From positions 272,926 to 336,925 of the forward strand of contig CAWCTG010000022.1 in assembly GCA_963798375.1 (NCBI GenBank): a stretch of 64,000 nucleotides of DNA, read 5' to 3'. This DNA comes from Candidatus Binataceae bacterium (GTDB taxonomy: Bacteria > Desulfobacterota > Binatia > Binatales > Binataceae). Position 1 is the first letter of the stretch. Each line of letters starts with the position of its first letter. Shown piece after piece: positions 49,326 through 52,384 of this stretch. The position numbers and the translations under genes were made by a program. The notes under the pieces were generated by a model. It had not been told where the DNA came from and did not search any database. It saw nothing but the letters and a program-made list of their open reading frames with translations.

Positions 49326-50237
49326 ATGTCCAGGAAAATTCCGTTCACCCTCGTCGATGTCTTCACGTCGCGGCCCTTCGGCGGCAACCAACTCGCGGTC
49401 TTTACCGACGCGGCAACGCTCAGCGCGAGCGAGATGCAGGAGCTGGCGCATGAGATGAACTTCAGCGAATCAACGTTCGTGATGGCGGCCGAATCTGCCC
49501 ACGCCGCGCGGCGCGTGAGGATTTTCACGCCCAGGCGCGAAATGCCGATGGCCGGGCATCCCACGGTCGGCACGGCGTGGGTGCTCGCGAGCCGCGGTGA
49601 GATTGCGCTCGAGTCGGCAAGCGTCGATGCGACGTTGCGGCTCGGGATCGGGCCGGTGACGGTGACTGTTGAGAGCAAGGAAGGCAAGCCGGGCTTTGTC
49701 TGGATGGCGCATCGCGAGCCCGAGTTCGGCGCGAAGCGTCGCGATCGCGCGCGTGTCGCGAAGGCGCTTGGAATCGCCGCGACGGACATCCGCGACGATC
49801 TGCCCATCCAGATCGTCTCGACCGGATTTCCATTCACTTTCGTGCCGCTTCGTACCCTGGACGCGCTCGCGAGATGCGTTCCCAACGTGGCAGCGCACAC
49901 CGCTTTGTTGAAACCGGGCGAGCAGTCGCTTCCTTTACATGCGTTCGTCGCAAACGAGTCGGGCGAGTTCTCTGCTCAATCGCGGATGTTCTCGCCGCAT
50001 GATGGAGTTCCCGAGGACCCGGCGACCGGAAGCGCCGCAGCTCCGTTCGGCGCATACGCTGCCACCTATGGATTGATCAAACCCGCACCCAAGGCCTCAT
50101 TCCTGATCCGGCAAGGCGTCGAGATGGGACGGCCGAGCGAGATTCGCGTCGAGGTCGTGCGCAAAGAAAGCGGCGCATTCGCAATCCGGATCGGCGGCCG
50201 ATGCGCGATCGTCGGTGAAGGTGCGATGTTCCTCTAG
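49326..50237 (+). CDS. PhzF-family epimerase/isomerase
   Basis: VDVFTSRPFGGNQLAV, MNFSESTF, RIFTPRRE.PMAGHPTVG and EDPATGSA. Confidence 0.93.
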   Translation: MSRKIPFTLVDVFTSRPFGGNQLAVFTDAATLSASEMQELAHEMNFSESTFVMAAESAHAARRVRIFTPRREMPMAGHPTVGTAWVLASRGEIALESASVDATLRLGIGPVTVTVESKEGKPGFVWMAHREPEFGAKRRDRARVAKALGIAATDIRDDLPIQIVSTGFPFTFVPLRTLDALARCVPNVAAHTALLKPGEQSLPLHAFVANESGEFSAQSRMFSPHDGVPEDPATGSAAAPFGAYAATYGLIKPAPKASFLIRQGVEMGRPSEIRVEVVRKESGAFAIRIGGRCAIVGEGAMFL

Positions 50238-50264
50238 CGCGCGGGCGCGGCTATTGTTGTGCGC

Positions 50265-50849
50265 ATGGATGACCGCCAAATCCCGTCGGTCGGCGAAAAC
50301 GCTCCCGAGTTCGCGCTCGCTGACTCGACCGGTATGGTTCGCCGGCTCGGCGAACTGATCGCAGGGGGAATGTGCGTCGTCGTTTTCTACCGTGGACACT
50401 GGTGACCGTTCTGCCTCCGCCAGTTGGCGGATTACTCGGAGCACCTCGACGATTTTCGCGCAGCCGGCGCCGAGCTGGTTGCGATCTCCGTGGATGACGC
50501 CGCTCGTGCAGAGCCGTGCCGCCGCGAGCTCGGCATCAAATTTCCGCTGCTATGCGACACTCGGCGCGAGGTCGTCAAGGCATACGGCTTGCTCAACACG
50601 CGGGAAAACGGCGGAATCGCGTTTCCGGCCTCATTTTTGATCGATCGCGATCGCGTCGTGCGTTTCCGCGCGCTGGAAGAAGTCGCCTCGCGCGTCAGCG
50701 TGGACCAATTGGTCGGACTGGTGCGCGCACTTGGCAGCGGCGTCGAGGTGCCGGCGACGCCGCGCCAGCGCGGCGTGTGGCCCGGAGCGATGTTCATCCG
50801 CGCGACGATGAACGCACTTCGCCGCGGCGTTCGCGTCCCGAATCGATAA
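50265..50849 (+). CDS. AhpC/TSA peroxiredoxin-like protein with in-frame TGA, probable selenocysteine (UxxC)
   Basis: ATG 50265 gives ...VGENAPEFAL...VVVFYRGHW-TGA(50403-50405)-PFCLRQL, continuing in frame into ORF 50424..50849 (ELVAISVD, FPLLCD, PASFLID). Confidence 0.85.
50406..50439 (+). promoter_or_regulatory. Putative bacterial SECIS element
   Basis: Perfect stem TCCGCC/GGCGGA with loop AGTT. The loop starts 16 nt after the UGA and has G at its second position. Confidence 0.65.
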
Positions 50850-50953
50850 GATCAAATCGCGTCAGCGCTCCTGGGCAAATTGAAATCACGCGTTGCATTT
50901 TTCAACTTTCCATCTGGTCTCGGCGATCCTATGATTCTGCACGCGGAGTTGGC

Positions 50954-52222
50954 ATGAATCGTCTATATCTTGTGCCGTTATCGTTTCTGCTCGCGACCGG
51001 ATTCAGCGCGTGCTCGGGCGAGGGTATTTCCGAAGCGCCGGTCTCTTACATGAATCCGGAAGGAGTCCGCGTCGAAGCGCTCGCGATGACTTCGCCGCGA
51101 GCCAACGCGGCCGCGATTCGGCTCCGCGACGGACGCGTGCTGATTTGCGGCGGCACGGCGACCGGAGAGGTCGGCGGCGTGCTCGCCAGCGCCGAGCTCT
51201 ACGATCCGGTGGCGCGCAGCTTCACGCCGACCGGCGCTATGACGGTCGCGCGAGCCGGACAGACGATCACGATGCTCCGTGACGGACGCGTGCTGCTCAC
51301 CGGCGGGGTTCAAAATGCCGGCTTTCGCTCGCAGCTCGCCAGTGCGGAGATTTACGATCCGGGCGCCGGCACCTTCAGCGCAACGGGCTCTATGGCGACG
51401 CCGCGCGAAGGGCATACCGCGACGATGCTTCGCGATGGGCGCGTGCTGATCGTCGGCGGCAGCGGCAACGGCGTGAGCACGTTGGGCTCGGCTGAGGTTT
51501 ACGATCCTTCGAGCGGCACTTTCAGCGCCGCGGGCCATTTGAACCAGCCGCGCGTCGCGCATGTCGCCGCGCTGCTTGGCAGCGGCAAAGTATTGATCGC
51601 CGGCGGCGGCCGCGGCGGCATGCCGGGCGGCTATATCTCCTACGACACCGCGGAAATGTACGATCCAGCCACGCGCAGCTTCACCGCGATGCGCGCGCAC
51701 ATGACGAGCGATCGCGTCGGCGCGGCTGCGATCAAATTGAACGACGGGCGCGTGCTGATCGTCGGCGGCAAGAGCGGCAGAGTCGCGACCAGCCGGCATC
51801 CCAATCTTTTTTCGCTGACCCCGCTCAACAGCTCGGAAATTTTCGATCCCGAATCCGGCACCTTCATCAGAACCGGCGACATGAGGGCGCCGCACTACCT
51901 GCCGACTGCAACCATGCTCGACAACGGGAATGTGCTCGTCGTCGGAGGATGGACCATCAAGGGGCCGGTTGTGGTCGGGATGCGCGACGCGGAAATCTAC
52001 CGACCCGAAACGAACCTGTTCTCGCAAGTGGGCCCGACCAACGTCGCGCGGCTCACTAACACCGCGACCCTGCTGAACGACGGCGAGGTTTTGATCGCCG
52101 GCGGCATCGACGCCAATTCGCTGGTAGGTGCGTCGGTCGAGTTCTACTCTCCAACGCAGCATCGGTTCCTGATGCTCCCCGAACCCGGCGAGTCCGCACA
52201 AGCTGCGCCCATGCAGCAATGA
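50954..52222 (+). CDS. Kelch/galactose-oxidase-repeat beta-propeller, probable lipoprotein
   Basis: Lipobox-like LATGFSAC and repeated R.GHTAT.L.DGRVL..GG....SAE.YDP units. Confidence 0.88.
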   Translation: MNRLYLVPLSFLLATGFSACSGEGISEAPVSYMNPEGVRVEALAMTSPRANAAAIRLRDGRVLICGGTATGEVGGVLASAELYDPVARSFTPTGAMTVARAGQTITMLRDGRVLLTGGVQNAGFRSQLASAEIYDPGAGTFSATGSMATPREGHTATMLRDGRVLIVGGSGNGVSTLGSAEVYDPSSGTFSAAGHLNQPRVAHVAALLGSGKVLIAGGGRGGMPGGYISYDTAEMYDPATRSFTAMRAHMTSDRVGAAAIKLNDGRVLIVGGKSGRVATSRHPNLFSLTPLNSSEIFDPESGTFIRTGDMRAPHYLPTATMLDNGNVLVVGGWTIKGPVVVGMRDAEIYRPETNLFSQVGPTNVARLTNTATLLNDGEVLIAGGIDANSLVGASVEFYSPTQHRFLMLPEPGESAQAAPMQQ

Positions 52223-52384
52223 AAGATTCGCCGGCAAATTTATTGCCCGCGTTTGAGCTGCGCGAGGCGCGCGCAGCCGCGCTCCCGCCTCGGGAGAGGC
52301 CATTTGGGCGGCGGGTTTATTTGGGCGCGCGCGCGTGATGAAATCTTTGACAGGATCGAAGGCGCACTGCGGGGAATCATTAGC

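Follow-up and report, generated by a model that had tools for sequence, protein, structure and literature searches.

A TGA-interrupted gene of Candidatus Binatus probably encodes a peroxiredoxin-fold selenoprotein with a UxxC active site

RESULTS

One reading frame with a single internal TGA

Inspection of the window, by which we mean the whole stretch of 64,000 nucleotides analysed here, identified a frame on the forward strand that runs from an ATG (50265-50267) to a TAA (50847-50849) and contains a sole in-frame TGA (50403-50405). When this TGA is read as selenocysteine (Sec, U), the product has 194 residues and carries the motif VVVFYRGHW-U-PFC-LRQLADY. The features of the locus are listed here with the evidence for each.

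50265..50849, + strand: complete gene for a predicted selenoprotein, 194 codons and a stop, with a U47-P-F-C50 motif (frame, Pfam, alignments)
50403..50405, + strand: in-frame TGA, predicted selenocysteine at residue 47 (invariant in 29/29 aligned Binatia sequences; Cys there in 16 homologues from other phyla)
50408..50442, + strand: SECIS-like stem-loop with lower stem 50408-50413/50437-50442, upper stem 50416-50421/50426-50431 and loop 50422-50425 (folding and stem conservation)
50412..50414, + strand: Cys50, putative resolving Cys of the UxxC motif (alignment to PDB 5xbs; kept in at least 90% of sequences in alignment A5)
50424..50849, + strand: 141-aa ORF of gene callers, whose TTG 'start' is Leu54 within the SECIS-like loop (ORF calling and database entries)
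50625..50627, + strand: Pro121, at a cis-Pro-type position where peroxiredoxins have the catalytic Arg (opposite the Arg of TVRGVFIVD in the 5xbs alignment; at least 90% in alignment A5)
50742..50846, + strand: C-terminal extension past the ~155-aa peroxiredoxin (Prx) core, residues ~160-194 (~40 residues), containing the conserved helix RGVWPGxMFxRATMNAL

ORF calling under table 11 yields two pieces at this locus, 50259..50405 (48 aa) and 50424..50849 (141 aa, TTG start). The initial annotation had proposed that the ORF track splits one gene here, and that the TGA falls at the first redox position of a W-x-P-F-C motif; both proposals hold, the motif reading W-U-P-F-C with the TGA at 50403-50405, and all of its coordinates proved exact. 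The start ATG is kept in 25 of 26 aligned sequences, with GTG in L048, and the presence of 1-nt indels between relatives 5' of the ATG indicates that the region upstream is non-coding.

The gene lies between two neighbours that have no obvious functional link to it. Upstream, at 49326-50237, is a PhzF-family isomerase-like gene (Pfam E 7e-64), with synteny conserved across the genus and a gap of 27 nt between its stop and the predicted selenoprotein gene. Downstream, at 50954-52222, is a kelch-repeat lipoprotein gene with its own promoter-like site (50907-50935). Almost every orthologue has a conserved GCTATTGT box 8-15 nt upstream of the ATG (window 50250-50264) and lacks a Shine-Dalgarno sequence. 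One possibility is that the box serves as a -10-like element, the mRNA then being leaderless or having a short leader; another is that it is an unusual signal for initiation. A promoter and terminator scan found nothing upstream of the predicted selenoprotein gene.

The TGA is invariant and flanked by coding constraint on both sides

A six-frame search found an orthologue in 27 of the 36 other genomes of the same genus (Candidatus Binatus). The orthologues span nearly the whole protein in 25 of the 27, at 63-88% identity, with the nearest relative at 88%; in G033 the match comprises residues 1-165, and the G036 orthologue lies in two frames. Exactly one TGA is present in each of the 27, and in both the protein and the DNA alignments it occupies the identical column in 26/26 full-length aligned orthologues and in 29/29 aligned Binatia sequences. 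Since the TGA recurs in 26 further genomes, each assembled independently, a sequencing error at this position can be ruled out.

Further support for a single gene is provided by nucleotide diversity, which at codon positions 1/2/3 is 0.19/0.09/0.39 in codons 2-46 and 0.15/0.08/0.42 in codons 59-140. Since this pattern is shared, both sides of the TGA appear to be translated in one frame. The 60 nt 5' of the ATG give 0.25/0.28/0.34 and periodicity is absent.

In the databases, the gene is recorded only downstream of the TGA among its closest relatives: the best 120 protein clusters listed from a collection of 5.8 billion proteins are all 140-145 aa, nearly all of them 141 aa, with a query coverage of 71-73%. 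These short-called clusters come from NCBI, ENA, JGI ('peroxiredoxin', 'peroxiredoxin Q/BCP') and Logan, and the active site is missing from them. The claim that such proteins are routinely mis-annotated is thus borne out, at least for the 120 best relatives listed, all of which are shortened.

Other AhpC/TSA-like matches, at ~31% identity to the 194-residue protein and with one in-frame TGA, were also seen within open frames of ~400 aa in several Binatus genomes (examples at G003:C4:169769-170248, G022:C1:6850-7329, G009:C6:310082-310561 and G013:C2:356774-357253). These paralogues may represent a second, longer Prx-like selenoprotein; among the matches listed, none of this kind comes from the window's own genome.

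A conserved SECIS-like hairpin follows the TGA

The UGA is followed by a hairpin whose upper stem consists of 6 bp, UCCGCC (50416-50421) with GGCGGA (50426-50431), closed by the loop AGUU (50422-50425). With a distance of 16 nt between the UGA and the start of this loop, and G as the second loop nucleotide, the structure agrees with the initial proposal of a hairpin that fits the bacterial SECIS model, and the element is conserved. The lower stem (50408-50413/50437-50442) is weaker than the upper one. Folding of 48 nt gives -16.6 kcal/mol (z = -1.9, with 7/200 shuffles as good) and a 60-nt fold gives z = -1.0, so that the hairpin energy is just mildly unusual for a sequence of 61% GC. In a covariation test, upper-stem pairs were kept in 96.6% of cells and lower-stem pairs in 80.5%; no compensatory covariation was found in the stem, since the upper stem does not vary across the genus.

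Stronger indications come from synonymous codon use. Across all 26 sequences, 7 of 108 conserved degenerate codons are restricted to a single codon, and four of those seven are the consecutive codons 52-55 (CGC CAG TTG GCG), which show zero synonymous change and lie where the RNA forms the upper stem and its loop. This is the sole synonymous-invariant run in the gene, where ~0.0004 such runs are expected by chance. Synonymous constraint at codons 52-55 is the best evidence we have for the hairpin as a putative functional RNA. It is therefore the comparative evidence, namely the invariant TGA and codons 52-55, that sets the hairpin apart from chance, and not its folding energy. In two homologues from other Binatia families at 40% identity (L053 and L054), W-UGA-PFC is also present; their hairpin differs in sequence (AGCUGCAG/CUGCAGCU), has a stem of 8 bp and carries its loop, GGU, 24 nt downstream of the UGA. 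An Rfam scan of 50200-50900 (E<=10) found no model matching the hairpin, the lone chance match being IRES_L-myc at 15.7 bits.

These results bear directly on whether the UGA is a real stop, in which case the locus would make two products, or just the 141-aa product from TTG 50424 that databases annotate. Such a reading agrees with the uniform 140-145 aa calls among the best 120 relatives listed and with a hairpin energy that is not striking. However, strands beta1-beta3 and the entire redox motif would be missing from a 141-aa product, its TTG 'start' lies inside a conserved helix without a ribosome-binding site, and purifying selection acts on the 46 codons 5' of the TGA as it does on those 3' of it, in one and the same frame. 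Nor would a stop be fixed at a catalytic column where homologues have Cys. We therefore consider a genuine stop very improbable. Two separate ORFs were rejected given the constraint on both sides of the TGA and the lack of an active site in the 141-aa form, and a pseudogene was rejected given the intact frame and hairpin.

The gene co-occurs with the Sec machinery, and distant homologues have Cys

All 27 gene-bearing genomes have selA or selB: selA was found in 26, and G021 (64% complete) has no selA match and does have selB. Both selA and selB are missing from six of the nine genomes that lack the gene (G002, G005, G008, G010, G014 and G019; 82-98% complete), and the other three (G031, G034 and G035) have selA. 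The association between gene and Sec machinery gives p = 4e-5 by Fisher's exact test, a value not corrected for shared ancestry. No Cys-converted copy was found in the nine gene-lacking genomes, in which the best matches are paralogues at ~35-40% identity that also occur in the window's genome.

The syntenic site could be examined in two of these nine genomes. In the Sec-less G005 (L086), the phzF-like gene is directly joined to the kelch lipoprotein gene and the equivalent of window ~50256-50881 is missing; G005 is the sole one of the six Sec-less genomes with an examinable site, and there the absence between the same neighbours is clean. In the Sec-positive G034 (L085 2417-2453), the equivalent of window ~50242-52242 is missing and phzF is joined to a heptosyltransferase gene, so that the deletion takes both the predicted selenoprotein gene and the kelch lipoprotein gene. 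From the 3' end of the gene, G034 keeps a remnant of 25 nt, identical at 23/25 positions to 50802-50826, indicating that the absence there is due to a secondary deletion. The pattern in the genus, with the gene found only alongside Sec machinery and deleted elsewhere, is a small, clean example of a selenoprotein and the Sec trait being lost together.

The initial annotation had suggested looking for Cys homologues aligned at the TGA, and these exist. FYRGHWC-PxC homologues at 23-46% identity from Phycisphaerae, Desulfobacterales, Myxococcota, Bacteroidota, Chloroflexota and Proteobacteria have Cys at the UGA position, and 16 homologues from other phyla align with Cys (as FYRGHWC) at the Sec column. 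Since a Cys codon was used in back-translating the search peptide VFYRGHWC, the scan is biased to Cys forms; the result thus speaks to the existence of Cys homologues and not to their frequency. A C-terminal tail like RGVWPGxMFxRATMNALRxGVR is shared by the Cys homologues L065 and L067 from Desulfobacterales.

Sec machinery and the meaning of TGA in the host genome

The genome that contains the window (G000) measures 4.18 Mb in 32 contigs and is 95% complete. The locus had been taken to imply a Sec-utilising organism with selA, selB, selD and tRNA-Sec, and all four were found, with selA frameshifted in the assembly. The tRNA-Sec scores 74 bits and is called SeC(tca) by ARAGORN, and both selD (388 bits) and selB (376 bits) are intact. 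The selA gene (C9:118552-119884) lies in two frames that match model positions 2-204 and 205-444 with 254 and 280 bits. Alignment with a relative attributes the frameshift to one extra base inside GATTAC-T-GCGGAT near G000:C9:119165-119171 (locus L016:~2110-2125), the sequence being GATTAC-T-GCGGATGCG in G000 versus GACTA-TGCCGACGCG in the relative. A selA gene was found in 29 of the 36 same-genus genomes and forms an intact single frame in 27 of these; in G023 it ends at a contig edge, and in G026 the split lies elsewhere in the gene than in G000. A single frame is also seen in those same-class genomes where selA was found, with the exception of G037, where it extends across two contigs.

The frameshift is either an assembly indel error or a very recent inactivation. 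The two differently placed splits, in G000 and G026, point towards assembly indel errors. If the frameshift is real, the G000 strain could not make Sec-tRNA, and the gene described here would be a recently stranded relic, a selenoprotein gene by ancestry without function in this strain, on which translation, for want of Sec-tRNA(Sec), stops at codon 47. The one extra base that splits selA in G000, as against the intact frame of most relatives, is what this explanation would predict, and the Sec trait has indeed been lost within the genus, in the six genomes without selA and selB. Against it, selB, selD and tRNA-Sec are intact in G000; the gene itself is undecayed, with frame and hairpin intact and 88% identity to the nearest relative; the G026 selA is split elsewhere, as expected of assembly indel errors; and where Sec has been lost in the genus, the gene has been deleted rather than kept. 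We give a relic only a slim chance. Residual doubt about the Sec coding of this gene comes mostly from a selA that might be truly broken in the G000 strain.

TGA otherwise behaves as an ordinary stop in this lineage, since 8 of the window's 15 best-coded long ORFs terminate with it, and the upstream phzF-like gene has TGA instead of TAA/TAG as its stop in four relatives. An alternative genetic code was rejected, TGA being a normal stop in the window's ORFs. A related explanation is that the UGA is read through without selenium, by near-cognate suppression with Trp or Cys or under a variant code. Full-length translation alone would be no proof of Sec, and to that extent such read-through has to be weighed; yet TGA is the commonest stop of the well-coded window ORFs, the gene is confined to genomes with Sec machinery, homologues have Cys in the column, and the hairpin is under synonymous constraint. 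Almost no credence is left for selenium-free read-through, and insertion of Sec is the reading we prefer.

A search of G000 for formate dehydrogenase alpha subunits of the TIGR01553 type alone found none above the cut-off, and none with a TGA. The usual flagship selenoprotein of bacteria, formate dehydrogenase, may be absent from G000, and this search provides no independent confirmation of Sec use.

A peroxiredoxin fold with a thioredoxin-type active site

The predicted protein matches Pfam AhpC-TSA (PF00578) over residues 9-134 (E 2.3e-29, 102.3 bits against a cut-off of 26) and Redoxin (E 1e-21). An AlphaFold2 model built from 32 aligned sequences has a pLDDT of 90.1 and a pTM of 0.89, and in it U47 caps the N-terminal end of helix alpha1 (residues 48-59). 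By Foldseek the model resembles Bcp4 of S. solfataricus (3hjp; TMt 0.90, rmsd 1.8 A) and AhpE of M. tuberculosis (1xxu; TMt 0.89), and the best PDB match by sequence is 3c71 (E 1.9e-12). In the modelled C-terminal extension, a strand (168-170) is followed by an amphipathic basic helix (176-187), with pLDDT about 80. No signal peptide or membrane anchor was found in the 194-aa protein, which is thus probably cytoplasmic.

A HMMER alignment to the true peroxiredoxin 5xbs puts Cys50 opposite the peroxidatic Cys and Sec47 opposite the catalytic Thr of PxxxTxxC; in the same alignment Arg43 stands opposite the motif Pro and Pro121 opposite the catalytic Arg. As predicted from the model and this alignment, the Prx fold is combined with a thioredoxin-type UxxC active site that has Pro at the cis-Pro position. 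The initial label of a 'peroxiredoxin-like UxxC' protein was apt, given the Prx fold, the thioredoxin-like motif and the absence of two of the three Prx catalytic residues. An NCBIfam scan returned 16 weak matches, none above its cut-off, among them ResA (NF002854, 54.7 bits versus 170), a SelL-related family (NF040769, 46.6 versus 120) and PrxU (NF040737, 36.9 versus 270), so that no curated equivalog applies.

DISCUSSION

A predicted selenoprotein and its possible chemistry

Overall, the gene structure, the conservation of the TGA and hairpin, the coding constraint on both sides, the Cys homologues, the fold and the co-occurrence with Sec machinery lead us to conclude that 50265-50849 is, with high probability, a single Candidatus Binatus gene whose product is a cytoplasmic selenoprotein of 194 residues with a Prx fold and a U47-P-F-C50 centre. 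What follows on the insertion of Sec, on redox chemistry, and on substrate and reductant is a prediction from sequence. SelB, as a SelB-GTP-Sec-tRNA(Sec) complex, would bind the small AGUU-loop hairpin 16 nt after the UGA, and its delivery of the tRNA would insert selenocysteine at the UGA in place of termination. The Sec47 selenolate, at the N-terminus of helix alpha1, could then attack a disulfide, sulfenate or peroxide substrate; Cys50 would resolve the intermediate to give an intramolecular selenenylsulfide, which a thioredoxin-type reductant might re-reduce. With Sec at the position of the catalytic Thr and Pro121 at that of the catalytic Arg, a thiol:disulfide oxidoreductase is more likely than a classical peroxidase.

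A more far-reaching reading is that the Binatus protein is a Sec-obligate and functionally distinct soil selenoenzyme, whose Se-S centre might carry out chemistry inaccessible to Cys and which might be one of the main reasons for keeping the Sec trait in this lineage. The case for an obligate need of Sec is that no Cys orthologue occurs in the genus and that the genomes without selA and selB lack the gene instead of having a Cys-converted copy; the case for a distinct enzyme is the Sec at the Prx Thr position beside a Cys equivalent to the peroxidatic one, together with the conserved C-terminal helix. We offer this reading tentatively and think it rather unlikely to be right.

The value of the finding lies chiefly in annotation, and knowledge of selenoproteins in general is unchanged by it. 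Because databases record a 141-aa fragment without the active site, proteome-based surveys miss both the redox function and the use of Sec in a widespread, uncultured soil lineage. The enzyme type has been known as a predicted selenoprotein family since 2004, and what is new is a member in this lineage. A literature search combining a Binat- term with selenocysteine found no paper on Binatia selenoproteins.

Comparison with known families

The first prediction of Prx-like thiol:disulfide oxidoreductase selenoproteins ('Prx-like protein' or 'Prx-like 1') is reportedly that of Kryukov and Gladyshev in 2004 (ref 12 of PMC13188914), and SelL is said to have been described as a family by Shchedrina and co-workers in 2007. 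Proteins with FYRGHWCPxC probably correspond to CDD PRX_like2 (cd02970), the description of which presumably matches the triad analysis given above. PRX_like2 and SelL resemble the Binatus protein in a FYRGHWCPxC-type CxxC motif, a second Cys at the peroxidatic position and the absence of the Prx Thr and Arg. SelL differs in having UxxU where the Binatus protein has UxxC, and the latter scores well below the SelL-related cut-off (46.6 bits against 120 for NF040769).

By its sequence, the gene fits the known predicted family of 'Prx-like thiol:disulfide oxidoreductase' selenoproteins (PF00578, UxxC). It shares with that family the AhpC/TSA domain, a UGA at the first position of UxxC (not TxxU), Cys homologues and a SECIS-type stem-loop; the assignment was made by these sequence-level criteria, all of which were found. 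The reference protein of the family is WP_010940744.1. The Binatia soil clade is set apart by a fixed FYRGHW-U-PFC-LRQLADY motif and by the ~40-residue C-terminal helical extension. Metagenomes of the Sargasso Sea and of GOS contain Prx-like UxxC selenoproteins in abundance (PMC1088965, PMC2398784), and the GOS study counted 225 selenoproteins and 2,740 Cys homologues for 'Prx-like 1, pfam00578, UxxC' (PMC2398784). A 2026 review lists the Prx-like thiol:disulfide oxidoreductase (PF00578, UxxC/UxxU) as 'predicted with high confidence', outside the experimentally verified set (PMC13188914).

Canonical peroxiredoxins (BCP/PrxQ, AhpE, 2-Cys Prx) have the same fold, and Cys50 falls at their peroxidatic Cys. 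Their PxxxT/SxxC motif, however, reads RGHWUPFC in the Binatus protein, with Pro replaced by Arg43, Thr by Sec47 and Arg by Pro121. With Sec in place of the catalytic Thr and Pro in place of the Arg, the protein is not a canonical peroxiredoxin. In PrxU, Sec occupies the peroxidatic position itself (TxxU), whereas the Sec of the Binatus protein lies three residues upstream of that position; NF040737 scores 36.9 against a cut-off of 270. Oxidoreductases of the ResA/TlpA type are alike in their WCxxC motif and cis-Pro, and one of them is the best PDB match by sequence (3c71). They are membrane-anchored and extracytoplasmic, in contrast to the Binatus protein, which has neither signal nor anchor and scores 54.7 against the 170 of NF002854.
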